A stretch of DNA of 23,694 nucleotides from an uncultured Candidatus Saccharibacteria bacterium (GTDB lineage: Bacteria; Patescibacteriota; Saccharimonadia; Saccharimonadales; CAZNVG01). The position numbers and the translations under genes are program-made. The DNA is taken from the NCBI GenBank assembly GCA_964576475.1, contig CAZNVG010000015.1:1-23694 (forward strand), written 5' to 3'. Each line of letters begins with the position of its first letter. The stretch's first letter is position 1. Under the pieces are notes generated by a model that was not told the DNA's origin, ran no database searches, and saw nothing but the letters and a program-made list of their open reading frames with translations. Below, in pieces: positions 2,878 to 22,540 of the stretch.

Positions 2878-3648
2878 CTACAATCTTCCGTCAAGTATTA
2901 GCGTGCCGTCCATCGTTTCTATAAAGCCAACGATGTGCTCTGTAGTCTGAGTGGTTGATTCTATTGTCATACTAAGTGGAGCTGTCTTGTAAATATGTCG
3001 AGCTGTAGCTTCCTGTTCGGTGGAGCGCATTGTGCCGAGTTGAGTGTAGGTGTGCGATGGAAGTAATTCAGGTTTTTCGTTGTTCGCCCATATTGGACCG
3101 AACCACGTGTCGCGGAGAACTTCTGCACCTCCAGAATGCGGTTCGATAATTCGCAACATTATAGTGCGCATGTGGGAGCGAGCGGAAGGGTCGTCCACAA
3201 ACTGACGACTAGCCAGTCGCGGCCTCTTCGCATCAAACAGCCCAATTTGTATTGTTTCGTCGACAGCGAGTTTTCCGACATCTAAAAAGCCCCATGTTTT
3301 TACATCCATATCAATAGATCGTCTGTAGTTTTCGTTGGCCAACTCCATCTTGCGTAGGTCAAAGGAGTGTTGTAAATGATGCGCTAATTCATCGTTGCCG
3401 ACAATTTGCGCGTATAGAGCGGCAAACTCTACTGGAGAGAGTTCGGATAGACGTTCGGCAATCAAGGGTTCCGATACACGAACAAACGCTTCGGTGAATA
3501 CGGCATCGAGATTATCATCTGGCTGTGTCTCATCTTGCAAGCGGGCAGTAATATAGTCATGAATAGACTGCGCCATCTCTAAAGTGGTTTCGTCAGGCAG
3601 TATATCTGTCGGTGTTGGCTCGCTTGGTGAACGTTTTTCTCGTGCCAT
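2878..3648 (-). CDS. Hypothetical protein (no recognised domain)
   Basis: 256-aa ORF convergent with the GH114 gene. On the minus strand a GGAG Shine-Dalgarno lies 6 nt before the ATG, with TATAGT upstream. Coding-like composition. Confidence 0.6.
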   Translation of the reverse strand: MAREKRSPSEPTPTDILPDETTLEMAQSIHDYITARLQDETQPDDNLDAVFTEAFVRVSEPLIAERLSELSPVEFAALYAQIVGNDELAHHLQHSFDLRKMELANENYRRSIDMDVKTWGFLDVGKLAVDETIQIGLFDAKRPRLASRQFVDDPSARSHMRTIMLRIIEPHSGGAEVLRDTWFGPIWANNEKPELLPSHTYTQLGTMRSTEQEATARHIYKTAPLSMTIESTTQTTEHIVGFIETMDGTLILDGRL

Positions 3649-3933
3649 ATGTGACGCTCCGTTTTATAACTATACACATTCGTCGTCTACGACTCATCAG
3701 CATGGCTGGTTTCATCCATGGTGTGTAGGTGAGGGTGCTTGCTTGTAATGGTGTCGCGAACGACAAATCCAGAACAAGAGCACTCCTCACAGGAGATTAG
3801 CGGTCTCTCCCAACCGAGTGATTTTCACGAGTGCTCACAACGTGAGTGCCGTGCTGTACTGATCACTACTTCAGTAGTTCACTTTGACCCCATAGTAGGT
3901 CCTAGTGCGAACAAACTAGTTCATCGGACTGCT

Positions 3934-5937
3934 TCAGCTGTCGGAGGACTCCGGCTCGGCTGCGCCGACGGTCGCCAGTTCCGGCTTGTGGCCGTTGTCG
4001 TTGACCTGGCCGGCCGCAAGCGATGCCATGACCATGGCGCTGATCGCGTCGCCGGTACCGCCCGAGCTGCCAACCTGGATGTTCGGCGTGATCACGACAC
4101 GGCCCTTGGCGATGGCTTCGATGACTGCGACTGCAGCCGTCTGCGCCTCGCCGATGGCCTCCTTCTGAGCCTGGAAGCCCGCCGCGACCGCGAGACCCTT
4201 GGCCTTCTCGGCATCCGCCGTGGCGGTACCGATCGCCTTGATCTTGGCAGCTTCGGCATCGCCGACCGTGGTGGTCACCTCGGCCTTGCCCTTGGCTTCC
4301 GCGACGTTGGCTTCTGCCTCACGCGTCTTGATCTCGACCGAGACCTTCGCCTTGGCGAGGTCGCCCTGCATGTCGGCTTCACCGCGCTGCGCTTCGAGCG
4401 CGACGCGTGCCTGCTGGGCGTCCTGCTGAGACTTGAAGGTCTCCTTCTCCTGCGCCGCGATCTCGCGTGTCGTCAGAACTTCGACGAGCGATTGCGGGAA
4501 CACGACGTCCTGGATGTAGACACCGCGGACTTCGACGAGGTAGTCCTCGAGGTAGTCCTTGATGTACGTCATGGCGTCGGCCTGGACGGCGGTACGCGTC
4601 TCGATGAACTCCATGGCGGTGAGTTCCTGCAGCTTGTTCCGGAAGTGGTTGCCCACTGCCGACTGCAGGACCTCGTTGACCAGGTTCTCCATCGAGGCGA
4701 CGCTGCCGATGACGCGAGGCGCGTTGGTGTCGGGCACGTGGATCTGAACCTGCAGATCGATCTTGAAGCTGAAGGCCTCGCGGCTCTTGGCTTCGATCGG
4801 GCTGAGGTTCGCGTCCAGGCTGTGTGCCTCGCTCGTTGCGTTCGCCCAGTTGAGCGTCAGGATCGAGGTCGGCACGATCTTCGCCTGGTAGATGCGCGGG
4901 TTCAACGGGTACTTGCCCGTGCGCAGCGATTCCTTCCAGATGCCCCGATGTCCCGGCTGGACGATCGAACCATGCTTGTACGTCTCACCCGAGGTGTCGA
5001 GCGGCGGCAAGCCCACGTAGGACTTGATGACGCCGACCTCACCTTGGTTGACGACCAGCATCGGCACGATCTCGACCGAGAACAGGAACGGGTTCAGCAG
5101 GTAGGTGCCGTAGAGCAGCGGGTCGTGTTGCAACCCGATGCGTCCGCCGGCCTCCAGGAACGCTTCGAAGTCCTGGTAGTTGTTGTGGAGGTTGTTCTTC
5201 GTCCCCAACAACAGCTGGATGATCTCTGCGTCGCTGGCTCCCTCGGCTTCCTTGGCCGTGATGTCCTCGAAGCCACCCAGCCGGCATGCCATGTCGCCCG
5301 AGGGCAAAGGCGGTCCTTCGTTCGCCGTGACGATGCCGATGTAGTCGACCGAGTCGTCGTTCGGGTTTGGCCGAATGACGGTTGTCGACAACTGATCGGG
5401 CGTCAGACGAGAGATCGCTGCCGAGGTGCCCTCGGAAACGACCTTGCCGTAGGTGGCGCCGAGCGTTGCGACGGCGAAGGCGACAGGATGCATCGGGATG
5501 GTCGTGCCTGGAGGCAGAACCGGCCGTTGCACACCGCGCTGACCGCCGTTCGCCATGAAGGCTGGCAGATCACTGAAGTCACCGAGTGCCGGCGTGTATT
5601 CAGCGGTCTTCGCACCGGGAACGGTCGGGTTGCCGACCTGTGCGATGACCACGCCGATGCCGCCAGGAGGAATCTGCACCCAAGGGTACAGCTCCACCTT
5701 GTAGAGCGGCCACAGCTTGAATCGCCAGCCCGGCATCAGAACATCGGGTTGATAACCGGCTTCGCCCTTCTGGGCGATGAGCTGGTTCTCGCCCTTCTTT
5801 CCCCATGCCTTGGTGACCAGTCCGATCTTGGACGGGCCGATGTTGTGCAGGGAATTCGTGATGAACTTCCAGAGGAAGAGCAACACCACGAGTCCGCCTG
5901 CAGCGAATCCGATGAGTTTGAAAGGTACGTCGTCCAC
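3934..5937 (-). CDS. Flotillin / SPFH (band-7, YqiK-like) membrane scaffold protein. High-GC island 1.
   Basis: N-terminal TM helix (FKLIGFAAGGLVVLLFLW), then an SPFH domain, then a C-terminal Ala/Glu/Lys-rich flotillin repeat region ending ...KGRVVITPNIQVGSSGG. This matches the canonical flotillin C-terminus. Preferred start is GTG at 5937, preceded by AGGAGA (5946-5941). The spacing is only 3 nt, so the start is uncertain. The six-frame ORF runs on to TTG at 6003, and an in-frame ATG at 5994 would add 19 low-GC residues. Strong GC3 bias on the minus strand. Confidence 0.75.
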   Translation of the reverse strand: MDDVPFKLIGFAAGGLVVLLFLWKFITNSLHNIGPSKIGLVTKAWGKKGENQLIAQKGEAGYQPDVLMPGWRFKLWPLYKVELYPWVQIPPGGIGVVIAQVGNPTVPGAKTAEYTPALGDFSDLPAFMANGGQRGVQRPVLPPGTTIPMHPVAFAVATLGATYGKVVSEGTSAAISRLTPDQLSTTVIRPNPNDDSVDYIGIVTANEGPPLPSGDMACRLGGFEDITAKEAEGASDAEIIQLLLGTKNNLHNNYQDFEAFLEAGGRIGLQHDPLLYGTYLLNPFLFSVEIVPMLVVNQGEVGVIKSYVGLPPLDTSGETYKHGSIVQPGHRGIWKESLRTGKYPLNPRIYQAKIVPTSILTLNWANATSEAHSLDANLSPIEAKSREAFSFKIDLQVQIHVPDTNAPRVIGSVASMENLVNEVLQSAVGNHFRNKLQELTAMEFIETRTAVQADAMTYIKDYLEDYLVEVRGVYIQDVVFPQSLVEVLTTREIAAQEKETFKSQQDAQQARVALEAQRGEADMQGDLAKAKVSVEIKTREAEANVAEAKGKAEVTTTVGDAEAAKIKAIGTATADAEKAKGLAVAAGFQAQKEAIGEAQTAAVAVIEAIAKGRVVITPNIQVGSSGGTGDAISAMVMASLAAGQVNDNGHKPELATVGAAEPESSDS

Positions 5938-5974
5938 ATGTCTCCTTTGATAGTGTGCGTGGGCAATCAAATAT

Positions 5975-6003
5975 ACTATAAAACTTCGTTGCATAAATAG
6001 CAA
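5975..6003 (-). promoter_or_regulatory. Sigma70-like promoter TTGCTA-17nt-TATAGT upstream of the flotillin gene
   Basis: On the minus strand the -35 TTGCTA is at 6003-5998, the spacer is exactly 17 nt, and the -10 TATAGT is at 5980-5975. It is AT-rich, in the background style, and sits immediately upstream of the GC-rich CDS. Confidence 0.4.
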
Positions 6004-7394: not shown

Positions 7395-7977
7395 AGTAGT
7401 CAACCCGTACGACCTGCGACATCGCCACCTGTCCAACTGTGGCTTGCGTATATGGTTGTTCAGACGCCCACTCAGTGCTGGCGCGCAGTGTCGGTAGATC
7501 AAGTATTCTCTCCCAACTCGCTACTATATGCGAATTTCTGGTCGTCATGTCCTCGCCAGCAGCGCGAGCCTGGTTATAGTCGGCATAGAATTCATCGTAC
7601 TCTGTCTCGCTGAGAGGCACTAGCGACGGATTGGAGCCGAGAAGCATGTGCCAGCTGTCGTAATCACTCAGAAGCACCTCGCTCTTTGGTGCACGAAAAT
7701 GTACCCGAACACCATCTGTCCCACGCTCTAAGTGGTATCTGTTTCTTAAATCTGGTTTTGGTTCAGCCCAGGCCCAGATGGGATAGTTGCCCTCATAATT
7801 GACGAGACGTTCGGTCATTTTTTGCATCAACCAACGATAGGCGGGCCTAAAATCAGTATGTGCAATACGCCTTCCATCTGCGCGAAGAACGCCTTTTGTT
7901 TCTGCTTGACGCCAAAATTCGAGCGGCTGTATTGTCCAAAGCTGCAGTTCGCTGGTCTCCATGGGTAGGTCACTCAT
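7381..7977 (-). CDS. Hypothetical protein, resembles DUF3841-type proteins (recollection only)
   Basis: 198-aa ORF. Its 3' end overlaps the trehalase gene convergently by 14 nt. Starts MSDLPMETSEL... TATACT lies 19 nt upstream of the ATG on the minus strand. Confidence 0.55.
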   Translation of the reverse strand: MSDLPMETSELQLWTIQPLEFWRQAETKGVLRADGRRIAHTDFRPAYRWLMQKMTERLVNYEGNYPIWAWAEPKPDLRNRYHLERGTDGVRVHFRAPKSEVLLSDYDSWHMLLGSNPSLVPLSETEYDEFYADYNQARAAGEDMTTRNSHIVASWERILDLPTLRASTEWASEQPYTQATVGQVAMSQVVRVDYFTAR

Positions 7978-8021
7978 ATAAAACTATTGCTAAAGTATAG
8001 CAAAAATGATCTTATAGTGAT

Positions 8022-8777
8022 ATGGAAATGCTTGTCGATAAACATCTCTATGACTTTGAACTCTGGGAACGAGAGCTCAAAACAATGAATAGCGACGAGT
8101 TACGTGAGCGATTCTTTCTTGATGTGCAATCATGGACTACATTTGAAGACAGAGCACAAATGTCGGCAGCGTTTGAACTTGCGGCATTCTTGCACGCAGA
8201 CGACCAGTACGGCAATGACGAATATACGAGACATACATTTAGAGTAGCGACTCGACTTGAGCATTATTATGGAGTGCGTGATGTTAATGTATTGACCGCA
8301 GCACCCCTGCACGACAGTGTTGAGGATCATCCAAAACTCATGGAGTTATTGTTGCCGAGCGATCTGCGTCGAGAAAACACAAATGCATCGGCGCTTCATT
8401 TTATTGAGCAGACTTTTAATGCAGATGTTGCATATCTGGTTGCAGGTATGACCAATCCTTGGTTTGGCGATAATCTCTCACTTGAAGAATTTCATGCAGC
8501 TTACCAACAATCGGTTTCCGATAAGATTCAGGGAGACCCCCGAAAAGCGGTTATCAAAGTAGCCGATATTGATGACAATGCACTCGGTCTACACCATGCA
8601 CCCAGCCTTGCGTTTCAGAAGCGACAAGTACCAAAATATGCGCCAATTCTGCCTATTATTAGACAGGAACTCCTGACTGGCATGCTACCGTCTGTTATGT
8701 CATCCGCGGCAGTGCCACATCTCCTTGCTAAGATAGACGCTGCTGAAGTGCGTTTTGCGGGAATTCTTTCGCGATGA
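8022..8777 (+). CDS. HD-domain metal-dependent phosphohydrolase
   Basis: The H...HD...D arrangement is present (RHTFRVATRLEH ... LHDSVEDHP). 251 aa. Its stop overlaps the next ORF start as ATGA. Confidence 0.65.
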   Translation: MEMLVDKHLYDFELWERELKTMNSDELRERFFLDVQSWTTFEDRAQMSAAFELAAFLHADDQYGNDEYTRHTFRVATRLEHYYGVRDVNVLTAAPLHDSVEDHPKLMELLLPSDLRRENTNASALHFIEQTFNADVAYLVAGMTNPWFGDNLSLEEFHAAYQQSVSDKIQGDPRKAVIKVADIDDNALGLHHAPSLAFQKRQVPKYAPILPIIRQELLTGMLPSVMSSAAVPHLLAKIDAAEVRFAGILSR

Positions 8778-10490: not shown

Positions 10491-11621
10491 ATGAAATCAA
10501 TTACTAACCTGCCCATAAAGAGCATTCTGACTAGAGAGGTACACGCACTCTCAAAGCGTTTGCGTCCGCTTATTTCGCGCTCAGCGCTTATTATTCATAT
10601 TGCTTTAATTTCTGGACTTTCAGTATTTGTTTACCAGTCATCACATCATCGTAGATTGAGCTCAGCGCCAATTGTGCCACGTACCGTAGAATCAGAGGCG
10701 CCGGCAGTCATTGACGAAGTTGCTTCTGCCGGGATTGCTGCTGTAGTTGCCAAAACGGGCGGGCTTACCGAAAAAGAAAACGTTGCCAACCAAGCAGACT
10801 CGCTTACTGCACAGGTCAACTTCGCTACAGTAGACGAGAACTACCTGGCGCGACCCCAGATCGTTGTGACAGATACAAAAACGCGCAAGGACATCATCAC
10901 TTATAAGACAGTAGGTGGAGACACTGTTGGCTCACTAGCTGCTAAGTTCAACGTTACTTCCGACACTATACGATGGGCCAATGGTCTAACTGGTGATGCA
11001 CTCGCGCCAGATAAGGAACTACAGATCCCACCAATTAATGGCGTACTTTACACAGTTAAAGCTGGCGATACGCCAGAATCACTCGCTTCCAAGTACAAGG
11101 CAAGTAAAGAACAGATTATTTTCTTCAATGACATCGAGCTAACGGGACTAAAGGCTGGCGAGAAAATCATGATCCCTGGCGGCTCTATTGAAGCTGTGGT
11201 CGTGCGCACTACTAGAACAAGTACCTCTACATCGAGTTCATCGGGCAGCTATGGCTTCGCATTTGGTACGGAACCGCTTTATGGTGGAAACGGCTACAGT
11301 CTTGGCTACTGTACGTGGCACGCCGCTAATAGACGAATACAGATAGGGCGACCGCTCCCAAGAAACCTCGGCAACGCCGTTACGTGGTATGCACTCGCAC
11401 AGCAAGCTGGTATCGCCGTCGGTAGTCAGCCGCAAGCAGGTGCCGTGTTATGGCACAGGGACCGTAGCGCTGGTGGCGGACTCGGACACGTTGCCTTTGT
11501 TGAGAAGGTAAACGAAGACGGCAGCATTCTAGTGTCAGATATGAACTATCCAATTTGGAATCGAATTACAACGCGCACAATACAGCCGAGCGAGTTTGGT
11601 CGATACGGTTTCATTTACTAA
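10491..11621 (+). CDS. Secreted/membrane-anchored peptidoglycan hydrolase with two LysM domains and a C-terminal CHAP domain
   Basis: N-terminal TM helix (ALIIHIALISGLSVFVY). Two LysM repeats (YKTVGGDTVGSLAAKFNV...; YTVKAGDTPESLASKYKA...). Ser/Thr linker (TTRTSTSTSSSSGS). The CHAP domain has a Cys in GYCTWHAAN and a His in GLGHVAFVE. The ATG at 10491 is preferred over the upstream GTG at 10449. Confidence 0.8.
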   Translation: MKSITNLPIKSILTREVHALSKRLRPLISRSALIIHIALISGLSVFVYQSSHHRRLSSAPIVPRTVESEAPAVIDEVASAGIAAVVAKTGGLTEKENVANQADSLTAQVNFATVDENYLARPQIVVTDTKTRKDIITYKTVGGDTVGSLAAKFNVTSDTIRWANGLTGDALAPDKELQIPPINGVLYTVKAGDTPESLASKYKASKEQIIFFNDIELTGLKAGEKIMIPGGSIEAVVVRTTRTSTSTSSSSGSYGFAFGTEPLYGGNGYSLGYCTWHAANRRIQIGRPLPRNLGNAVTWYALAQQAGIAVGSQPQAGAVLWHRDRSAGGGLGHVAFVEKVNEDGSILVSDMNYPIWNRITTRTIQPSEFGRYGFIY

Positions 11622-11659: not shown

Positions 11660-12919
11660 ATGTTTGTAGATAAAGTCACAGTTTCAGTAAAAGCAGGGAA
11701 TGGCGGCAACGGAGCCGTCAGTTTTCGTCATGAAAAATATGTTGATAAGGGCGGACCCGATGGTGGTGACGGCGGAAATGGCGGCGATGTCATATTCGTA
11801 GCCGAACATAACCAGAGCAGTCTTGCGGCATTTCGCTTTCAACCTAAACTTAACGCAGAATCAGGTGTCAATGGATCAAAGCGCAAAAAGCGCGGCGCCA
11901 GCGGTGACGACCTCTTGGTTAAAGTGCCTGTCGGTACAGTTGTCGTTCGAGACGATCGTATAGTTGCAGATCTCACAGAAGAAGGACAGCGAGCAACAGT
12001 TGCAGAAGGCGGCCGCGGAGGGTTCGGAAACGCGCACTTTATTAGCTCAACGCGCCAGGCTCCACGAGTTGCCGAGCTTGGAGAAAAAGGTGATGACTAC
12101 ACCTTGATTTTAGAGCTTAAAATGTTAGCTGATGTTGGATTAATTGGACTGCCTAATGCCGGCAAGTCTACTTTTCTATCAGTCGTCAGTAACGCCACAC
12201 CAGAAATTGCTGACTACCCGTTCACGACACTAAAACCTAATCTTGGCGTAGCCGATTTTGATAGTCATTCACTTTTGATCGCCGATATCCCTGGTCTCAT
12301 AGAAGGAGCCAGCAAGGGTAAGGGGCTCGGAGTTGAGTTCCTTCGCCACGTGGAGCGTACCCAGGTGCTCTTGCATCTAATTGATGTCACGAGTAATGAT
12401 GTCGTAGCCGATTATGAAACCATTCGAAAAGAGCTTCGTGAATACGCAGTCGATATGACCAAAAAGCCACAGATCGTCGCCCTTACCAAGACCGACACAC
12501 TTGACGAAGAACTCGTAGCGATGCAGATGAAAGAACTCAGAGCGGTTTTGCCCGTTCGCACAAAACTTATTGCTATAACCGCTAAGAATAAACAGAGCTT
12601 ACTTGAAGTTCTCAGGGAAACATACAAGATTGTAGTCAGACAGAGGAAGAAGAAAACTGTCGCCATAGATCCAGATGCCGTACCAATCTACGAGCTACAG
12701 AATGATGATGCTTGGCGCGTTACAGTTACGGGAACGACGTACATAGTAAGTGGAAGAAAAATAGAGCGATTTGCCGAGAGAACAGACACTGAGAGTGAAT
12801 ACGGCGTACGTCGACTAAGAGATATCATGCGCAAAATGGGTATTATGCATGAACTGGAGCGCAAAAAAGCCGAACGCGGCACCGTAATTCATATCGGAAA
12901 CAAATCCATCAAATACTAG
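11660..12919 (+). CDS. obg: GTPase Obg/CgtA
   Basis: Glycine-rich Obg fold at the N-terminus (VKAGNGGNGAVSFRHEKYVDKGGPDGGDGGNGGDVIF). G-domain motifs: GLPNAGKST, DIPGLIEGA, TKTD. C-terminal OCT/TGS-like domain. Confidence 0.95.
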   Translation: MFVDKVTVSVKAGNGGNGAVSFRHEKYVDKGGPDGGDGGNGGDVIFVAEHNQSSLAAFRFQPKLNAESGVNGSKRKKRGASGDDLLVKVPVGTVVVRDDRIVADLTEEGQRATVAEGGRGGFGNAHFISSTRQAPRVAELGEKGDDYTLILELKMLADVGLIGLPNAGKSTFLSVVSNATPEIADYPFTTLKPNLGVADFDSHSLLIADIPGLIEGASKGKGLGVEFLRHVERTQVLLHLIDVTSNDVVADYETIRKELREYAVDMTKKPQIVALTKTDTLDEELVAMQMKELRAVLPVRTKLIAITAKNKQSLLEVLRETYKIVVRQRKKKTVAIDPDAVPIYELQNDDAWRVTVTGTTYIVSGRKIERFAERTDTESEYGVRRLRDIMRKMGIMHELERKKAERGTVIHIGNKSIKY

Positions 12920-12947
12920 ACAAATAAGCATAAATGTGTTAAAATTG

Positions 12948-12980
12948 CACCGAATTACACTTCGGTGTTTTTCGTTATTT
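12948..12980 (+). terminator. Rho-independent terminator of obg
   Basis: Stem CACCGAA (12948-12954), loop TTACAC, stem TTCGGTG (12961-12967). It is followed by the T-tract TTTTTCGTTATTT. Confidence 0.75.
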
Positions 12981-13000
12981 GACAGATAGCCAATTGAAGC

Positions 13001-13052
13001 GCTAGGTGAGGTACGTGTGCTTTTATGACAGAGCACACCTATCTCATCTAGC
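13001..13052. repeat. 21-nt imperfect inverted repeat (hairpin) in the leader of the island-2 gene
   Basis: Left arm GCTAGGTGAGGTACGTGTGCT (13001-13021), a 10-nt loop, right arm AGCACACCTATCTCATCTAGC (13032-13052). There is 1 true mismatch and 2 G-U-compatible positions. A perfect TTGACA lies at 12979-12984 just upstream. Confidence 0.5.
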
Positions 13053-13119
13053 AAATGGAAACACCCACTTGCAGCAATCAGAGATTGTCGGCATCAAGCC
13101 GAGTGAGAGAGAGGAAATC

Positions 13120-14001
13120 ATGACCTCGGTCATCACCCGCAAGTCCACCCACCCCTTCACCAACCTGACCATCAAGACCAAGACGAAGGTCTCGGGCTTC
13201 ACCGCCGGCACGGAGACGGTCATCAACGAACTGCTCACGCAGCTGTTCGGTGACTTCGTCTCCGCCATCGACCTCGTGGAGCCCAAGCTGCAGAAGCTCA
13301 TCACCGAGCCGATGCCCGGCCAGTTCACCAAGTCGCGAACCAGCATGGTCAGCGGCGTCAACGGTGTGCGCGTCGAGGTTCAGGTCGACGTCCAGATCGA
13401 CTCGATCGTCGATGCCGAACGCATCAACGAGATCGTGTCCTTCCTGTTCGAGCCGATCCTCAGCACGTCGATGTCGGCGATCGCACGTGGCGGTCTGTTC
13501 ACGCGCACGGACCTTCAGCGTCTGCGCAGCGAACACCTTCCGCCGTTCGCGGACATCGTGAGCCAGCTGGCCGGCTTCGTGGCGTCGACGTTCCAGTCGA
13601 TGGGCAGCAAGCGCACCGACTTCGGTTCGCGTCACAACTTCAGCGCCTTCGACAAGACGTTCATGCAGAACGAGAACCCGGATCGCGACCTCTACTCGCG
13701 CCTCGGTGATCTCGCCACGCGAGCACACCGCAAGGGTGCCGGCGCGCATCGTTCCGGAGCCGACACGTCCTTCTCGACCACGTCGGGTTCGATGTCCGGC
13801 GAGGACTTCCTCGAGCGACTCGGCGATCTCGATCGCTTCTTCGCTCCCGGCTTCGGTCTCGTCGACGCCATGGAGGAGAGCCCGCTCTTCGAGCGCATCG
13901 TCGGTGACGGCTTCGTGCTCGAGATGTTCGAGGTGGTCCCTCCGCCGTTCAAGACCTACGGCGACCTCAAGGATCGCCGACGCGACAGCGCCACGAGCTG
14001 A
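13120..14001 (+). CDS. Hypothetical soluble protein, no recognised domain. High-GC island 2.
   Basis: The ATG at 13120 is preceded by GAGAGAGAGG with 5-nt spacing. Strong GC3 bias on the plus strand (ACC TCG GTC ATC ACC CGC AAG TCC ...). No TM helix. 293 aa. The antisense ORF 13078-14055 is an artefact. Confidence 0.65.
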   Translation: MTSVITRKSTHPFTNLTIKTKTKVSGFTAGTETVINELLTQLFGDFVSAIDLVEPKLQKLITEPMPGQFTKSRTSMVSGVNGVRVEVQVDVQIDSIVDAERINEIVSFLFEPILSTSMSAIARGGLFTRTDLQRLRSEHLPPFADIVSQLAGFVASTFQSMGSKRTDFGSRHNFSAFDKTFMQNENPDRDLYSRLGDLATRAHRKGAGAHRSGADTSFSTTSGSMSGEDFLERLGDLDRFFAPGFGLVDAMEESPLFERIVGDGFVLEMFEVVPPPFKTYGDLKDRRRDSATS

Positions 14002-14016
14002 TCGTCGGGTGAGTAC

Positions 14017-14051
14017 GGGGCAGCAGCCACGAGAAAGAAGGCTGCGCCCCC
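14017..14051 (+). terminator. GC-rich stem-loop downstream of the island-2 gene (factor-independent terminator of high-GC type, weak T-tract)
   Basis: GGGGCAGCAGCC (14017-14028), an 11-nt loop, GGCTGCGCCCC (14040-14050). That is about 11 bp with one bulge, followed by ...GGGTCGTTTCC. Confidence 0.45.
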
Positions 14052-14174
14052 ACAAGGGTCGTTTCCAATCAATTCTTTCTCCTCTGGCTGTCTGTCCCCC
14101 TCACTTCAATGACTACTTTGTCATTCTGACGAGTCCTCTGTAAGGACGAAAAGCGAGGTATACTAAGGTCAGTT

Positions 14175-15548
14175 GTGATTTTAGATAATCCCAGAGCTTT
14201 CAGCCTAGATAAGAACCCCGCTCCTAAGCGAGGAGCTGTTGTGTACGTCATGAGCAGAGACCAGAGGGTCGCCGACAATCACGCCTTGTTGTTGGCGCAA
14301 AGCGAGGCGCTTCGCCTTAAATCTCCACTACTAGTTGTTTTTTTCTTGCAAAAGCAGACAGGAAACAGAGCGCAGGAGCACTAGGTGTTTATGCTCAAAG
14401 GCTTAGCTGAGATTGGCGTTGAGTTGAAGTCGTATCATATTCCGTTTTTGATCCGAACAGGCAATCCAGTTACCGTACTTCGCTCTCTTGAAAAACTACT
14501 TGATGTATCGACAGTGATCATGGACTTCAATCCACTGCGCGGTCCACAGAATCGTTTTAATACATTGCATGAAAAACTAACGAGCACAGTCATTGAAGTA
14601 GATACGCACAATATTGTTCCTGCTCGGCTGGTTAGCGATAAACAAGAGTACGGTGCACGAACAATACGTCCAAAAATCCATAAACTATTGCCAGAATTCT
14701 TAGCAGAACCCGGCTCACTTAGGGTTCATCCACACACTGCTAAGCTGCCTGATGAGCTACGCGCCGGTGAAAGTTTGCATCTGCCTCGAACAGTGAAGGC
14801 TAACGGCACGCATATAGTGCAGACATCTGGGGAGATGGCTGCTCGCGAAGCGCTAGATGTATTTATAAAGGAAAGACTCAAAGGCTATGCATCACGACGC
14901 AATGATCCCACACTCGACGGCTTGAGTAAGCTAAGTCCATATTTGCATTTCGGCCAACTTGCAAGTCTTCGGGCTGTGCTTGATGTTGAGATAGCGGCCG
15001 CAAATGATCAGACACTTAGAGTTGATGCTGACGCCTTCATAGAAGAGATAGTAGTGCGAAAGGAGTTATCAGATAACTATTGTCTGCATAATAAGAATTA
15101 TGATTCCTTGCGAGGCGCTCCAGGCTGGGCCCAGAAAACACTTCATGAGCATGCGGGCGATCCAAGAGAGCGCCTGTATTCTCTACCGGAGCTAGAAGGT
15201 GCACAGACGCATGACCCAGCATGGAACGCAGCACAGCGGGAGATGCGAGTGACGGGTAAAATGCAAGGGTATATGCGCATGTACTGGGCTAAGAAAGTGC
15301 TCGAGTGGAGTCCAGATGCTGCTACGGCAATTAAGCATCTCATGTATCTCAATGATTTCTATTCTATCGATGGCGGTGATCCCAACGGCTATGTCGGTAT
15401 TCTCTGGTCAGTCGCTGGCTTGCACGATCGACCTTGGTCTACACGAGATGTGTTTGGCTCTGTTCGCTATATGAACTACCAAGGGCTAAAAAGAAAATTT
15501 GATATCACTGCATATCAAGAACAATGGGCCGATTCTCTGTCTCTCTAG
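14175..15548 (+). pseudogene. phr: Class II CPD photolyase interrupted by an in-frame TAG at 14382-14384
   Basis: ORFs 14175-14384 and 14385-15548 are in the same frame. The N-terminal part (AVVYVMSRDQRVADNHALL...LLVVFFL) and the C-terminal part (VFMLKGL ... WAKKVLEWSPDAA...YLNDFYSIDGGDPNGYVGILWSVAGLHDRPW...RYMNYQGLKRKFD) together form a complete class II photolyase. The TAG falls where homologues carry Tyr/His (RQYEFML), so it is one substitution away from TAY. TAG is a genuine stop elsewhere in the window. Confidence 0.8.
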
Positions 15549-16014: not shown

Positions 16015-17235
16015 ATGGAAAATGAACCACAGGCGCACATGACCGCCTCGCAGCAAATACCAAATCCTTTTAGCGGTGAAATGTTTCGTGTAACTATGGA
16101 ACAAAATCATCTGCACGACGTTGTAGTGCGCTTGAATGAGCATTTTGCTAATAAGTCATACGCAACTGAAACGCAGAGCACTAATATTGATGGTACAAAA
16201 CAAGATTGGTTAGTGCTGCCGGGTGTAGAAATTACGTTTAGCGATGGTCAGAAAGGCTATCTACAATTTGCACGTATGAATGATCGTGCTACGCGAAAGC
16301 TAAAAGATCGCTCTCATGATACCTACATTGTTGTTAATGGTGGCATAAGTAATCCGCTCGCGAAACTAGACGTTAACCCTGATGATAATCCTTCTGTAAA
16401 ACTCGTCGATCTTAGCGCTTTGAGTAATATCACCATAGACAGCCCAGAACAGATCAGCGTTATCGACACCATGCTTGAGACACTGGATAACACAGAAGCA
16501 ATGAGAAAACTACATGCTCAGCAGATAGCAGAAAAGGTTATTGCTGAACGAGAAAAGAAACAACAAGAACAGCAAAGGAAGCAAAAGGCGCGTCGCCAAA
16601 AGGCACGTCGATTCATAGGTTCTACCGTAGTGACAACCCTAGTTACAGTAACGGGACTCTCAGCGGTAGGTGCTGCAGCGTACGGAATTAGAGCTGGCGT
16701 AGTCTGGGCTAATCCAGATCAAGAGCAACTTGGTGAGCTGATGCCTAATGACAGCTTTGTGCCAATTGGCGAGGAATCGCGTTTGTATGAAATTGAAGAC
16801 GATGACGTCATGCATGAACTCATTCGCACGCTAGATACGGTCAAGAATGAGTCAGTTAATTCGGACGAGAAGCTGCCTAAGGAAGTGGGCTCAGTAGAGC
16901 CGCAAGGTCGGGTAGGTTCTGTCCTGTCATTTTATCTACCTGATGAAAAGGGAGAATGTGAAGCACTCCCAATACAGTCTCCTCGCGAGGACGACAGCTC
17001 TATTATAGGTGCGCGAGTGCTTACCAGTGCCGGAGCGCCGGGTAATTACTCAGTTAAACTGACCAATGTAAGAACAAAAGTAACTGGCGAGACAGTGGGT
17101 GACTACACGACTGATGTAGCTTGGTTACGAGTGTGCAAGACTTCAGATTTCCGCGACTCGACTCGTGTCGGTGATCAGAATGAAGTGTTTGTCCGTTTTG
17201 AAGACAAAGATACGCTTCCGGAAAATTTGCGATAG
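16015..17235 (+). CDS. Bitopic membrane protein, paralog A (cytoplasmic N-domain, basic coiled-coil, single TM, about 200-aa extracytoplasmic C-domain)
   Basis: The TM helix FIGSTVVTTLVTVTGLSAVGAAAYGI is preceded by KQKARRQKARR (positive-inside). The N-domain is clearly paralogous to the next gene (WLVLPGVEITFSDGQKGYLQFARMNDRATRK vs WLVSPVVETTFTDGEAIELRLARCIDRKVRR). Promoter TTGACA at 15978-15983, then CATAAT. The ATG follows the -10 by 6 nt. Confidence 0.65.
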   Translation: MENEPQAHMTASQQIPNPFSGEMFRVTMEQNHLHDVVVRLNEHFANKSYATETQSTNIDGTKQDWLVLPGVEITFSDGQKGYLQFARMNDRATRKLKDRSHDTYIVVNGGISNPLAKLDVNPDDNPSVKLVDLSALSNITIDSPEQISVIDTMLETLDNTEAMRKLHAQQIAEKVIAEREKKQQEQQRKQKARRQKARRFIGSTVVTTLVTVTGLSAVGAAAYGIRAGVVWANPDQEQLGELMPNDSFVPIGEESRLYEIEDDDVMHELIRTLDTVKNESVNSDEKLPKEVGSVEPQGRVGSVLSFYLPDEKGECEALPIQSPREDDSSIIGARVLTSAGAPGNYSVKLTNVRTKVTGETVGDYTTDVAWLRVCKTSDFRDSTRVGDQNEVFVRFEDKDTLPENLR

Positions 17236-17282: not shown

Positions 17283-18527
17283 ATGAACGAACACTCTGCC
17301 AAACTCTCTTTTGATGGCCCAATGCCATTCACACACCAAACAGTTGAACAAGTTGGAAACGAAGCCAATTTGCACGAAGTGCGACTGCTGTGTGATGACA
17401 TGTTCGATGACAGTAATTTTGTGTCTCGAATAGAGCGGGTTGGTCCAGATAGTAAAAAGCACGTCTGGTTGGTGTCGCCTGTCGTTGAAACAACGTTTAC
17501 TGACGGCGAAGCAATTGAGTTGCGACTGGCTCGATGCATAGATAGGAAAGTTCGACGTGATCCAAACAGTCGATCTGATACCTTTTTGATAATAGGCGAA
17601 GCAATTGAATCGCCACTTGCTGAGTTGTCTGTTCAGACGCATATGCGACCATTTGAGAAAGTAATTGACCATAGCAATCTGGAATCCTTTGATGTGAGTG
17701 AGGAACAATCTAGTCTGCTCGAGCGAACAGCGCGCGAACTGGCTCGTCTTCGAGTCGAAAGTTTGGACGCAAACAAAGACGCCCAAGCGCAGACCGAAGC
17801 TGAGAAGAAAGCAATTAGGAACAGACGAATAGATATCGCCCAGAGGTTCGGACTGGGAGCTGTTGTCGGTGTAGTTGTCGTAGGCTCAATTGTAGGCATG
17901 GGTTTTGCCGTTATCAGCGAGGCTGAAAAAGTAGAGACTCCCGTGATTCATCCAGCCGCTCAAAAGGTTACCAAAGCCACAGAGGGAACGTTTACCGGCA
18001 TTGGGCAATCAGCGCTCGTTCTAGAGCGCGATGAGGAAACATATAGCGCTATCAGTGCAGAGCTTTCTGCCGATTTCAAAGACGCGAACATTACTGAAGA
18101 GTGGGAACAGTTTTATGTAGACGCGAAAAGCCAGCTTGGGCTTCCTAGTGAGGTCTCTGTTGCCAGCCTTAATGGAAGATATGACAAAAACGTATATGAG
18201 TGGTTAGCGCTACCTACGAAGGATTGTCACTTGGTAATGTTTGAATCTGCTACAACTGGCGAAGATCGTATTGTCGGAGTGGAGACAGTCACCAAAGACA
18301 GCGCAAGAGGCGACTACAGTGTTGATGTAGGAAAAAAAGAAATGCGTGTAGATCTTGAAGACGAAGCGGACTACAATGCGCAGATTGTTGCTGCCAATGT
18401 CTGCAAAGTCGGAAGCGTGAAAGACAATCCTTCAGAAGACACCTATGACTGGGCGATTATGCGTGCTGTTACAGCCGAGGAGGCTGGTAGATTAGGCTAT
18501 CCGCTACCACCTGAAACCGAAGGCTGA
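17283..18527 (+). CDS. Bitopic membrane protein, paralog B (tandem duplicate of the upstream gene)
   Basis: Same architecture. Basic stretch RNRRIDIAQR, then TM helix FGLGAVVGVVVVGSIVGMGFAVI. Its own -10 TATAAT (17266-17271) lies 11 nt upstream of the ATG. A shared upstream motif ATAATAGTT precedes both paralogs. Confidence 0.65.
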   Translation: MNEHSAKLSFDGPMPFTHQTVEQVGNEANLHEVRLLCDDMFDDSNFVSRIERVGPDSKKHVWLVSPVVETTFTDGEAIELRLARCIDRKVRRDPNSRSDTFLIIGEAIESPLAELSVQTHMRPFEKVIDHSNLESFDVSEEQSSLLERTARELARLRVESLDANKDAQAQTEAEKKAIRNRRIDIAQRFGLGAVVGVVVVGSIVGMGFAVISEAEKVETPVIHPAAQKVTKATEGTFTGIGQSALVLERDEETYSAISAELSADFKDANITEEWEQFYVDAKSQLGLPSEVSVASLNGRYDKNVYEWLALPTKDCHLVMFESATTGEDRIVGVETVTKDSARGDYSVDVGKKEMRVDLEDEADYNAQIVAANVCKVGSVKDNPSEDTYDWAIMRAVTAEEAGRLGYPLPPETEG

Positions 18528-20080: not shown

Positions 20081-22372
20081 ATGCGGCGATTCATAGCAAT
20101 AATGTTCATGGCTTCGGTCATGTTCATTCCGATTGGACACGCTGGTGCCAGCATGCTCCAAACCGTACCTGACTGCGACGCAGTCGTGCTCTCGTACGGA
20201 GACAGTCCGTTTGACGCCGCCGATCAGTCGTTTCAAGCGGCAGTAGAGCGTCTGCGATCAAACGACATCGACCTGCATGTCTGGGTCGTGCCAACCATCA
20301 AGCAAGCTGACGATCTGGCGTGGAAGAACGCCATGGTGTCACAGTGTCCGAACTGGCGCGAAGGCGACGATCTCGCTGCACGTACGTTCGTGATGCTGGT
20401 GACCTTCGAGGGTCCTCGTGGCGAGCGTCCGATCGGAGCTCGGTGGGGCTACGATCTTAGGTCGCAGCTCAGCGATTCAGACTGGTATGCGACACGAGAC
20501 AACTACCTGATTCCGAACTTGCGCGAAGGAGACTTCACGCGAGCGGTGACGGAGAGTCTTGATCGTTTCAGCGACATCATCGAAGGTGTCGACGATTCGT
20601 TCGTGCCAGCACAAGACACCGACAGCATCGCCAACGAAGCAGGCGGTGTCGACTCGGGTGGAGTTTCTGTCCCGTGGGCTCGAATTCTGTCGTGGCTCGG
20701 CGCAGGTCTGACGCTCATCGCGGCCGTGGCGGCATCAGTTCTCGGCATCCGTCGATACCTCGCCATCAAGGCAGTTCGTGCTGAAGCGGCGCGTGACTTC
20801 GAAGAGGCTCGGACGAGCTACTTCGATGCCGCGACGTTGCAGGATCAGTTGCATCAGCGCGCTGTGGTGCGACTCGGCAAGCTCGAAGCCAGCGAGGCGG
20901 CAAGCCTTGTTGACATTGAGCGAGCCGCATTGGCTCAGATGAGCGAGGTCACGCCCAGAATCGACGAGTTCGATAGTCGGATCAAGCAGCGTCGCTCCGG
21001 CGATGACTGGTCGACGTTCGGAGACGAAGTCGAGCGGTTTCGGGCTGACGTAGCCGGCACCAAAAGTGCGTTCGGTGACCTGCAAATTCGGCTCGACGAG
21101 CTGGACAAGTGGGAAGCTGAACTGCCGGCGATGCTCGATGATCTCGATGCGCAAGTGCCAAAAGTCGTTGCAGCAATCAAGCGGCAAAGCGATGCGGGTT
21201 TCCGTGTCGATTATCCGCAGCGTGTGCTGGATGACGGTCGTGCCATACTTCAGCAGGCGCGTGAGAAATTGAGCTCGAACGCCTTTGGCGCAGCCTGCCA
21301 GTCGGTGATGGAGTGCAGACTCGTTCTCCAAAAGGCGACTGAAGAGGCTGACGGGCTTCCGAAGCGATACGCCGATCTGCAGACTTGGATCGACGATCTG
21401 CAGGACGAACTCAAGCTCAACGTCGCTGCCCAGCAAACGGTCTCGCAAACACTGCACAGGCTTGTCGAGGAGTACAACCTGGACTCGCTCACCAGTGTGA
21501 GGGGGAACGATGTCACGGCGTCCGACAACAACGCCCAGTCTGCCAAGCTTCTCGATCTGGCAACTCGCCTGAGCGACATGAAGCAGCAGGATTGGGATGG
21601 TGCTGAAGGTGCGTGCCGGCAGGCCGAGACGTTGATCGACTCGACCAAGTCCATGCTCGAGGCGACGACTGCGCTGGATGTCAAGTTGCGTAATGCGCAT
21701 ACGCAAGCTCCCGGAACTCTCCGTGAGCTGACGCAGAACGCACAAGCTGCGCAGAGCTACGTCGACCAGCATCGTGGCGATATCGACACGAGCGTTGACC
21801 GATCCCTTCGAGAAGTCGAAGGTCGGATTTCGCAACTGGAGACGGAGCTCAGCAGGGAGAAGCCGGAGTACTTGTCCGTCTTGGACGAGCTCGCCAGCAT
21901 CAGCCAGGCGATCGAGTCGGCTCAGCAAAGCGCAGAACGCCAACACCAGAACATGGTGCAAGCGGCGTCAGTTGCTAAGTCGGCAATCGATGAGGCAGCT
22001 AGCTACATCTCTCGGAACTCAGGCATCGTGGAGAGCTCGGCTCGTAGCCAGCTTGATACCGCCCGAACCGAGTACAGCAACGGGCAGAACGCTCGTGGTC
22101 CAGAAGAGAAGCTGGCATATTTCCAGCGAGCTGCCAACGACGCCCAGTCGGCGGAATCGTCAGCTCGTTCAGACGTTGCCGCCGAAGAGGCACGGCTTCG
22201 TCGCATCGAAGAAGAGCGACGTCGTCGCGAGGACGAAGAGCGTCGTCGCCGGCAGCGCGAAGAAGACGATCGGCGTAGCTCCTCCATCAGCTCAAGCTCA
22301 AGCAGCTTCTCGAGTTTCGACTCGGGTGGCAGTAGCGGAGGAGACTCCGGTGGCGGGGGTGGCAGCTGGTAG
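20081..22372 (+). CDS. TPM-domain (TLP18.3/Psb32/MOLO-1-like) membrane protein with a long coiled-coil and a C-terminal Arg/Glu then Ser/Gly low-complexity tail. High-GC island 3.
   Basis: GGAGG lies 7 nt before the ATG. Signal peptide MRRFIAIMFMASVMFIPIGHAGAS. TPM-like core (DLHVWVVPT...FVMLVTFEGPRGERPIGARWGYDLRSQLSD). TM helix ILSWLGAGLTLIAAVAASVLGI. About 450 aa of heptad-rich sequence. Tail RRIEEERRRREDEERRRRQREEDDRRSSSISSSSSSFSSFDSGGSSGGDSGGGGGSW. Strong GC3 bias. Confidence 0.7.
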   Translation: MRRFIAIMFMASVMFIPIGHAGASMLQTVPDCDAVVLSYGDSPFDAADQSFQAAVERLRSNDIDLHVWVVPTIKQADDLAWKNAMVSQCPNWREGDDLAARTFVMLVTFEGPRGERPIGARWGYDLRSQLSDSDWYATRDNYLIPNLREGDFTRAVTESLDRFSDIIEGVDDSFVPAQDTDSIANEAGGVDSGGVSVPWARILSWLGAGLTLIAAVAASVLGIRRYLAIKAVRAEAARDFEEARTSYFDAATLQDQLHQRAVVRLGKLEASEAASLVDIERAALAQMSEVTPRIDEFDSRIKQRRSGDDWSTFGDEVERFRADVAGTKSAFGDLQIRLDELDKWEAELPAMLDDLDAQVPKVVAAIKRQSDAGFRVDYPQRVLDDGRAILQQAREKLSSNAFGAACQSVMECRLVLQKATEEADGLPKRYADLQTWIDDLQDELKLNVAAQQTVSQTLHRLVEEYNLDSLTSVRGNDVTASDNNAQSAKLLDLATRLSDMKQQDWDGAEGACRQAETLIDSTKSMLEATTALDVKLRNAHTQAPGTLRELTQNAQAAQSYVDQHRGDIDTSVDRSLREVEGRISQLETELSREKPEYLSVLDELASISQAIESAQQSAERQHQNMVQAASVAKSAIDEAASYISRNSGIVESSARSQLDTARTEYSNGQNARGPEEKLAYFQRAANDAQSAESSARSDVAAEEARLRRIEEERRRREDEERRRRQREEDDRRSSSISSSSSSFSSFDSGGSSGGDSGGGGGSW

Positions 22373-22408
22373 TCGGTTACCGCAAAGTGGTTGGATGAAG
22401 TAGGGCTT

Positions 22409-22468
22409 GGTGTCCAGAGTCGTGTGTGGTGGAGAAATCCATTGCTTTATACACCCACTCTGGACACC
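22409..22468. repeat. Perfect 12-bp inverted repeat between convergent genes (possible bidirectional terminator or protein-binding palindrome)
   Basis: GGTGTCCAGAGT (22409-22420) and ACTCTGGACACC (22457-22468), separated by 36 nt. No clear T-tract on either side. Confidence 0.4.
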
Positions 22469-22540
22469 AACCCTACACATCGAATCTAGGAATAGACATG
22501 AGGTCCTACTGATGAGTCGCAATAACGACGAAATTCGATT

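Follow-up and report, generated by a model that had tools for sequence, protein, structure and literature searches.

A compositionally foreign orphan gene followed by a long hairpin and a predicted hammerhead ribozyme in a Saccharimonadia genome

How is a gene of foreign composition accommodated between the housekeeping genes of an ultrasmall epibiont, and what forms its 3′ end there? The question is raised by contig CAZNVG010000015.1 (GenBank assembly GCA_964576475.1), a stretch of 23,694 nt from an uncultured Candidatus Saccharibacteria bacterium that was analysed over its full length and is called the window hereafter. Its mean GC content is ∼47-48%. Three sharply bounded GC-rich stretches, islands 1, 2 and 3, stand out from this background, each with one long open reading frame (ORF) whose third codon positions are strongly enriched in GC; in the other genes of the window, GC at third positions (GC3) is 0.37-0.50. 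The subject here is island 2, downstream of obg, with an ORF at 13120-14001 (+ strand, ATG start) that encodes an orphan protein of 293 amino acids (aa). Read from its sequence features, island 2 is probably a foreign ORF whose 3′ end is formed by a phage-like module, a hairpin plus a ribozyme, that would insulate the next gene. An earlier annotation of the locus (the original prediction) did not notice that a type III hammerhead motif is present at 14099-14158, nor that each of the three GC islands is followed by one; the view of the 3′ end of island 2 changes with this motif. The case bears on how ultrasmall epibionts take genes from Actinomycetota hosts.

The foreign character of island 2 is apparent from its composition and its distribution. 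GC content of the ORF is 0.634, with 0.58, 0.44 and 0.88 at the first, second and third codon positions (GC1, GC2 and GC3), in a genome of 47% GC where the median GC3 of native genes is 0.44. Its relative synonymous codon usage (RSCU) correlates at r = 0.90 with that of Acidimicrobiia genes and at r = -0.12 with that of native genes, which bears out the Actinobacteria-like composition first described for it. The GC-rich block extends ∼60 nt past the stop codon, and the flanks have native composition. The 3′ hairpin of the donor therefore probably came along, and the idea that the gene arrived with its own 3′ end is probably right. The gene is missing from the interval between obg and sbcB or photolyase in ∼130 other Saccharimonadia loci; no homologue was found in the obg neighbourhoods of 160 such loci, and in particular no low-GC counterpart occurs at this place in these relatives, in keeping with the original prediction. 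Deviating composition and codon usage, together with absence from the orthologous interval, support the conclusion that island 2 is a compositionally foreign, horizontally acquired ORF.

The third mark of a horizontal islet, a homologue in the donor lineage, is found for island 1 but not for island 2. The SPFH/Band 7 protein of island 1 (3934-5937, - strand, GC3 0.83) has thousands of homologues, the best being 60-66% identical and encoded in metagenome-assembled genomes (MAGs) of Acidimicrobiales, Ilumatobacteraceae and Microthrixaceae. Searches for donor homologues of islands 2 and 3 (the latter encoding a TPM-domain protein; 20081-22372, + strand, GC3 0.66) found none. Codon usage alone therefore points to the donor of island 2. 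Cultured Saccharimonadia parasitise Actinomycetota, and network analyses tie Ca. Microthrix to Saccharimonadia genera (PMC10943839). Island 1, whose nearest relatives are in Actinomycetota (Acidimicrobiia), resembles such host-to-epibiont transfer in Saccharibacteria, whereas island 2, with its donor suggested from codon usage only, differs from clear cases of it. The RNA parts of the cassettes have another composition, since hammerheads and leaders are low in GC (0.37-0.47) and resemble phage hammerheads. Thus, the cassette is a chimera, in which a foreign ORF with a short 3′ tail lies between native or phage-like RNA modules.

The 3′ side of island 2 begins with a long hairpin without a T-run (14017-14098, + strand; -48.3 kcal/mol, z = -4.3). 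The GC-rich stem-loop previously regarded as the gene's own terminator (14017-14051) does exist, with 12-nt arms at 14017-14028 and 14040-14051 that are 83% complementary, but it lacks a U-run and constitutes the inner part of the longer hairpin. One substitution distinguishes this hairpin from its counterpart in a sister strain, represented by a 45.8-kb contig of a sister population (L136) in which the whole region is syntenic with the window. At its 3′ end the hairpin directly adjoins helix III of the hammerhead motif.

This motif (HHR2; 14099-14158, + strand) has the anatomy of a type III hammerhead ribozyme. Helix III is formed by 14099-14106 and 14151-14158 (7/8 bp), with A14151 paired to U14106 and C17 at position 14107; helix I by 14108-14113 and 14120-14125 (6 bp); and helix II by 14133-14137 and 14143-14147 (5 bp). 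The core consists of CUGACGA (14126-14132) and GAA (14148-14150). It has all the elements of the type III core (C3 U4 G5 A6 N7 G8 A9, G12 A13 A14, the A15.1-U16.1 pair and an unpaired H17), and helices I and II are closed by loops, with helix III open. Taken in isolation, 14098-14159 has the canonical three-way junction as its minimum-energy fold. Cleavage is predicted at 14107/14108, which is 106 nt after the stop codon of island 2 and 67 nt before the GTG start codon of the photolyase gene at 14175. The Rfam model RF00008 (Hammerhead_3) gives a weak local match (14106-14151, 19.7 bits). A covariance model (CM) built from bacterial and phage hammerheads, with the island 3 copy left out (CM R1), gives 61.4 bits, HHR2 being a member of its training set. 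In the sister strain, the motif is changed only at N7 and in loop 2.

A further structural feature concerns the segment 14002-14013 (UCGUCGGGUGAG), just past the stop codon, which in the minimum-energy fold of the 3′ untranslated region pairs with part of helix III and with the CUGACGA core, within 14100-14132. This pairing is weaker in the sister strain, where the core is CUGAUGA. Judged from the predicted folds, it is possibly an alternative structure that would inactivate the ribozyme.

The same layout recurs in the window. An unfiltered CM scan found exactly three hammerheads there, one behind each GC island, with the next best match at 10 bits. HHR1 (3673-3727, - strand), a U15.1-A16.1 variant behind island 1, lies 24 nt upstream of the next gene; it has 16.9 bits with Rfam and 59 bits with CM R1 (as a training member), and folds into the canonical junction. 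HHR3 (22479-22539, + strand), behind island 3, follows a long hairpin at 22394-22478. It was first found by a structural descriptor and matches RF00008 over the full model (43.9 bits, E = 9e-9 in a local search); with CM R1 it reaches 50.9 bits, though left out of training. Only loop 1 of HHR3 differs in the sister strain. A compact descriptor, with HHR2 among its finds, had 4 matches in 1.42 Mb and 0 in 30 shuffles.

Recurrence extends to the class. In a survey of 2.1 Mb from 163 Saccharimonadia loci, the only further hammerheads were one in locus L056 and an orthologous set in loci L177, L208 and L214, each after a long hairpin. The first follows a membrane-protein ORF of 63% GC (GC3 0.88) and the others an ORF of 97-102 aa between obg and sbcB (GC3 0.73 and 0.63), versus GC3 medians of 0.46-0.52. 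The 300 nt upstream of each hammerhead are in the 87th-99th GC percentile of their own locus. Helix I covaries, with A-U in L177 replaced by G-C in L208. The ORFs of the cassettes, compared with one another, have no similarity. All hammerheads found in these 2.1 Mb come after a long hairpin and an ORF that is enriched in GC and in most cases an orphan, and the hypothesis is that imported genes receive from the ribozyme both their 3′ end and their insulation.

The gene next to HHR1 has a history of its own. This low-GC gene of 256 aa (2878-3648, - strand), located after the SPFH gene, is 29% identical (E = 8e-34) to L085:10069-10821, the gene after SPFH in Acidimicrobiia genomes. The two members of this conserved gene pair, separated by a hammerhead, differ in composition: GC is donor-like in one and native in the other. 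The difference suggests that the history had two steps or that only one gene was replaced.

The interval between obg and sbcB, in which island 2 lies, is a class-wide insertion hot spot. The Saccharimonadia backbone runs from a CHAP/LysM hydrolase gene through obg to sbcB, in some loci with photolyase between the last two and in some with pheA after sbcB. Where obg and sbcB share a strand (131 loci, drawn from a set labelled L003-L217), the gap between the two genes ranges from -2 to 5,639 bp; it is <265 bp in 57 of them and largest in the window and its sister strain. In three loci (L031, L042 and L067) obg directly adjoins photolyase, and in other lineages unrelated, often GC-enriched inserts occur directly after obg (L003, L005, L046, L139-L141 and L177). 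It is this variation in gap size, together with unrelated inserts in different lineages, that marks the hot spot. The Obg protein of the window is at most 61-63% identical to those of Candidatus Saccharibacteria and Saccharimonadales MAGs (GTDB genomes and JGI metagenomes), and the source is thus a poorly sampled environmental Saccharimonadia lineage. Because all relatives are distant (≤63% Obg identity), no close empty site is available and the boundaries of the insertion are unmappable by alignment. Chimeric assembly is excluded, since the independent assemblies L001, L136 and L137 have the same junctions, at 3-5% divergence.

One of the other inserts is peculiar. After obg, L139 has a block (7590-8340; likewise in L141 and L140) whose GC content reaches 70%, without a convincing ORF and with the hairpin GGCGGCTTCGGCCG in three copies. 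This block may once have been a foreign insert that has since degraded, or may be non-coding in nature.

On the 5′ side of island 2, a consensus scan gives a sigma-70-like promoter candidate at 12917-12945 (+ strand; TAGACA, a 17-nt spacer and TAAAAT, with a TG extension), the sole promoter-like site on this strand within 12700-14500. It overlaps the obg stop codon and is kept in the sister strain, where the -10 element is TAGAAT. The hexamer TTGACA at 12979-12984 (+ strand), read at first as a perfect -35 element, is indeed present in the sequence, but no acceptable -10 element occurs at 16-18 nt and the site at 12917-12945 is a better candidate. Between the two sites, obg has a terminator-like hairpin, GCACCGAA...TTCGGTGT, followed by a T-run (12947-12974, hairpin 12947-12968, + strand; terminator scan). 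A transcript starting near 12952, ∼7 nt after the -10 element, would not contain the 5′ arm and would thereby escape the terminator.

The leader contains an inverted repeat at 13001-13052 (+ strand), with 21-nt arms (13001-13021 and 13032-13052) and a 10-nt loop. Its arms are Watson-Crick complementary at 18/21 positions, or at 20/21 when G:U is included, because two mismatches of the three become G:U pairs on the + strand. For the leader (12985-13125), the predicted folding energy is -51.9 kcal/mol, with z = -5.6 versus shuffles and -3.4 for the minus strand. Both arms are retained in the sister strain, where one G:U is replaced by A:U. The repeat and the stability of its hairpin thus agree with the original prediction. 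The rest of the leader (13053-13119, + strand) is folded into three small hairpins and includes the Shine-Dalgarno (SD) sequence AGAGGA at 13110-13115, of the GAGG type as expected; it is identical in the window and the sister strain. The hairpin loop (13023-13031) is a local hypervariable spot, differing from L136 at most positions, with one indel; the next 200 nt are identical.

Two roles considered earlier for the leader repeat find little support. No Rfam match better than chance was obtained for the leader, and an attenuator, RNA thermometer or riboswitch is unlikely, as 58 nt separate the end of the hairpin (13052) from the SD sequence, a U-tract is lacking and no known aptamer family is matched. 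A remnant of a miniature inverted-repeat transposable element (MITE) or of an insertion sequence at 13001-13052 was rejected: the repeat arm is single-copy in the window (zero expected by chance), occurs in the sister contig only at the orthologous site, and no direct repeats flank the island. A similar arrangement is seen right after obg in L046 (11530-12540), with TTGACA, a leader hairpin with 24-bp arms (11549-11603) and a 235-aa ORF of GC3 0.88; its order, TTGACA and then a long inverted repeat, matches that of island 2.

The observations on composition, synteny, motif anatomy, recurrence and conservation suggest the following working scheme. The obg-sbcB hot spot of this environmental Saccharimonadia (TM7) genome holds a cassette of ∼1.2 kb with a single gene. 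The cassette core (∼13110-14060, the ORF and the short GC-rich 3′ hairpin) probably comes from a high-GC Actinomycetota-type donor. Transcription would start at the local promoter at the obg end, near 12952. The 21-bp hairpin of the ∼165-nt leader may stabilise the 5′ end, be a site for a double-strand RNase or bind a protein, and the ORF would be translated from the AGAGGA sequence. Read-through RNA would fold an ∼80-nt hairpin and then the type III hammerhead, which is predicted to cut itself at 14107/14108. The cassette mRNA would keep a hairpin-protected 3′ end with a 2′,3′-cyclic phosphate, and the photolyase mRNA would be freed with a 5′-OH and the ribozyme body at its 5′ end. Hairpin and hammerhead would together be a terminator-independent 3′-end and insulator module, of a kind common in phages.

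According to a published review, small non-conserved ORFs are frequent neighbours of prokaryotic hammerheads, which are also linked to phages (PMC6155905). HHR2 has the same core and three-helix topology as prokaryotic and phage type III hammerheads (RF00008; PMC6155905), and like them is intergenic and located beside a relative-less ORF of unknown function. A stable hairpin directly upstream of helix III is present in many IMG/VR phage contigs, and many type III hammerheads in this collection have the same helix II sequences, often directly after a GC-rich hairpin. Unlike phage hammerheads, the motif of the window occurs on a Saccharimonadia chromosome among housekeeping genes, with no recognisable prophage; each ORF has a single ribozyme, always located 3′ of it; and the ORFs are of foreign composition, their GC3 reaching 0.88 against a genomic GC of 47%. 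GC-rich upstream ORFs, considered as a feature of phage hammerhead contexts, were not seen in IMG/VR contigs. Three IMG/VR phage contigs (L095, L104 and L124) have four type III hammerheads each within ∼1.8 kb, flanking short ORFs. A literature search found no paper tying hammerheads to Saccharibacteria or Patescibacteria.

Likenesses to other systems are partial. Phage ‘moron’-like islets consist of a promoter, an ORF and a terminator, with deviating composition. Island 2 is likewise an autonomous-looking unit between conserved genes, sharply different in composition and absent from relatives. Unlike in morons, the GC shift is limited to the ORF and ∼60 nt, the promoter, leader and ribozyme being of native composition, and the 3′ end is a predicted ribozyme and not an intrinsic terminator. 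In RiboJ-type synthetic insulators, a hammerhead is placed between parts of a transcription unit. Similarly, hammerheads of the window are located 16-24 nt upstream of the start region of the next gene (photolyase, and the 256-aa gene after island 1), and cleavage would free the downstream mRNA from the sequence before it; unlike RiboJ, the element of the window is natural. Since the gene after the island 3 hammerhead is convergent, insulation of a downstream ORF cannot be the only role. Integron cassettes also have a single ORF followed by a long imperfect hairpin, and many of their ORFs are orphans. Here, by contrast, no integrase or recombinase domain was found in the window ORFs, attI and a tandem array are absent, the cassettes are dispersed between housekeeping genes and carry their own leader, and the hairpins share no sequence.

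Several points weigh against the reading of island 2 as a foreign ORF ended by a hairpin and a ribozyme. HHR2, at 19.7 bits, is far below the Rfam gathering score of 48.5; its helix III contains a C:A mismatch and its cleavage triplet is UUC. The minimum-energy fold of the whole 3′ untranslated region pairs part of the HHR2 core with 14002-14013. Conservation of HHR2 is seen in one sister lineage, with three substitutions only. The putative promoter at 12917-12945 is proposed from its consensus match, and high-GC codon usage cannot identify a particular donor. The protein appears to have no homologue outside the sister strain, and the ratio of its non-synonymous to synonymous substitution rates (dN/dS, omega), at 0.67 over 39 substitutions, is indistinguishable from neutral evolution, so that the protein may do nothing. 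Finally, the GC-rich orphan cassette of L046 ends in a long 3′ hairpin and an intrinsic terminator, a hammerhead being absent, and the hairpin-hammerhead module is thus not obligatory.

Among the rival explanations, the one that survives best, although it is on the unlikely side, considers the island 2 ORF as a decaying or neutral passenger, with a 293-aa product that is functionless here and with only the RNA structures, if anything, maintained. When the two strains are compared, dS is 0.061 and dN 0.041 for the gene (12.5 synonymous and 26.5 non-synonymous changes); native genes have omega values of 0.01-0.12 and island 3 has 0.19. A word-indexed search of 5.8 billion proteins found a single true relative, the copy of the sister strain (P0001/L136), and an exhaustive HMMER search of 1.84 billion representatives again gave this copy as the sole one. 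The full-length AlphaFold model is poor, with a predicted local distance difference test score (pLDDT) of 43, and <50 in the C-terminal half. Stop codons are rare in GC-rich DNA, and therefore an intact ORF is weak evidence of function. On the other hand, the ORF is intact in both strains, with its SD sequence and ATG; the N-terminal 140 residues have few changes and are modelled compactly, as a bb-a-bb-a sandwich (pLDDT 70); the protein shares a repeated RLGDL motif with P0002, an unrelated high-GC protein; and mosaic divergence between the strains makes the estimates noisy. The reading of island 2 as an imported ORF with a ribozyme-formed 3′ end is favoured.

As first described, the protein is soluble (maximal 19-residue hydropathy of 1.26, no Cys, no Trp) and without recognisable motif, since no match was found in Pfam, NCBIfam, PHROGs, PADLOC or PDB sequences. 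Nor was there any match in tblastn searches of GenBank phages and PLSDB plasmids, or in back-translated scans of IMG/VR and JGI metagenomes. P0001 is 92% identical to it and is encoded on a 1.4-kb contig with the same obg-leader-ORF layout. Another match is weak: P0002, of 150 aa and from a contig of 72% GC, contains the motif DFLxRLGDLDRF three times, and this repeat is matched by residues 226-240 of the island 2 protein (EDFLERLGDLDRFFA) and by a partial copy at 191-199 (LYSRLGDLA). A match to P0003 was rejected as false and repeat-driven, and no hidden homologue was present among those neighbours of Acidimicrobiia SPFH genes that were checked. For the N-terminal domain, a CheC/CheX/FliY-like fold, which would require a pseudo-symmetric alpha/beta sandwich with a D/S-x3-E-x2-N-x22-P phosphatase motif, was considered; the modelled bb-a-bb-a domain is a lead only.

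An arrival of island 2 after the split of the strains, as its dS of 0.06 versus 0.27 for obg could indicate, was rejected. Divergence between the window and the sister strain is a mosaic across the whole region, and most of the photolyase gene also has dS 0.065. The low dS of island 2 is thus not evidence of recent arrival.

Less probable than a passenger ORF is plain horizontal transfer of a gene with its own GC-rich terminator, a TTGACA promoter and a leader acting as attenuator, operator or RNA thermometer, the hammerhead-like motif being irrelevant or inactive. The foreign composition and the native flanks are real, and the GC-rich hairpin is inside the GC-rich block; the low Rfam score of HHR2 and the L046 cassette devoid of a hammerhead also speak for this unlikely view. 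Yet TTGACA has no -10 element, the 3′ hairpin has no U-run, and the leader hairpin is distant from the SD sequence and belongs to no Rfam family. The succession of ORF, hairpin and hammerhead is found in 3/3 islands of the window and with all other hammerheads of the survey, where zero is expected by chance.

An improbable explanation is that the hairpin-hammerhead element is a mobile unit that moves or captures ORFs, either by an RNA intermediate (as with retrozymes and circular RNAs) or by attC-like site-specific recombination at the hairpins. The same 3′ module is found on unrelated ORFs that lie at several sites in more than one genus, a hot spot exists between obg and sbcB, the hammerheads of L056 and L177 share loops (GUGU and AAAA) despite different ORFs, and the long imperfect hairpin 3′ of each ORF recalls attC. 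However, the unfiltered CM scan of the window revealed no second hammerhead upstream of any ORF; no integrase, reverse transcriptase or transposase is encoded in the window; direct repeats or repeated ends are absent; the three hammerheads of the window are not recent copies of one another; and the cassettes are at the same positions in both strains.

Hardly credible is that the true gene is the minus-strand ORF at 13078-14055 (325 aa), for although it is longer, intact in both strains and chosen by the public gene call on the sister contig (L136, 2997-3974, - strand), the plus frame has the classical high-GC pattern GC3 > GC1 > GC2, which the minus frame mirrors (GC1 0.85, GC3 0.58), as well as the higher RSCU correlation with high-GC genes (r = 0.90 versus 0.55) and the SD sequence and ATG, and the minus-strand product is rich in Arg, Leu, Gly and His, like an antisense translation. 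The plus-strand ORF is thus the coding frame, as had been assumed. The same artefact occurs at the SPFH island, where an antisense ORF of 753 aa (3739-6000, + strand), longer than the gene, lies opposite a gene with thousands of homologues. The antisense call on L136 is one reason why the island 2 protein is so invisible in protein databases. Gene callers trained on a low-GC genome can miss the true proteins of GC-rich islands, and orphan status is then exaggerated.

What hammerhead ribozymes do in bacteria is recognised as an open question (PMC6155905). It is tempting to propose, although this wider view is doubtful, that Saccharimonadia routinely fit genes from high-GC Actinomycetota hosts with a phage-derived hairpin-hammerhead 3′ module, the ribozyme thus marking host-to-epibiont capture. 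The hammerhead may take part in the capture itself, by defining the RNA ends of a transfer or recombination intermediate, or may allow foreign ORFs to be expressed in an insulated form where hot spots are permissive, as in the obg-sbcB interval. If true, this would give prokaryotic hammerheads a concrete biological role and make them a practical handle for finding imported genes, and hence hosts, in uncultured Patescibacteria.

The genes downstream of island 2 have their own particularities. The class II-type DNA photolyase gene (14175-15548, + strand) has an SD sequence TAAGG at 14163-14167 and a GTG start codon. It is interrupted by an in-frame TAG at 14382-14384, which in the sister strain is TAT (Tyr) in an intact gene of 457 aa; the TAG is either a nonsense mutation, making a pseudogene, or a sequencing error in the window. 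Further downstream, 16015-17235 and 17283-18527 are tandem paralogues (24% identity, E = 5e-25) encoding proteins of ∼410 aa with a central transmembrane segment and no known domain. Both are missing from all other Saccharimonadia loci examined, and 16015-17235 has the highest dS of the region between the two strains (0.43).

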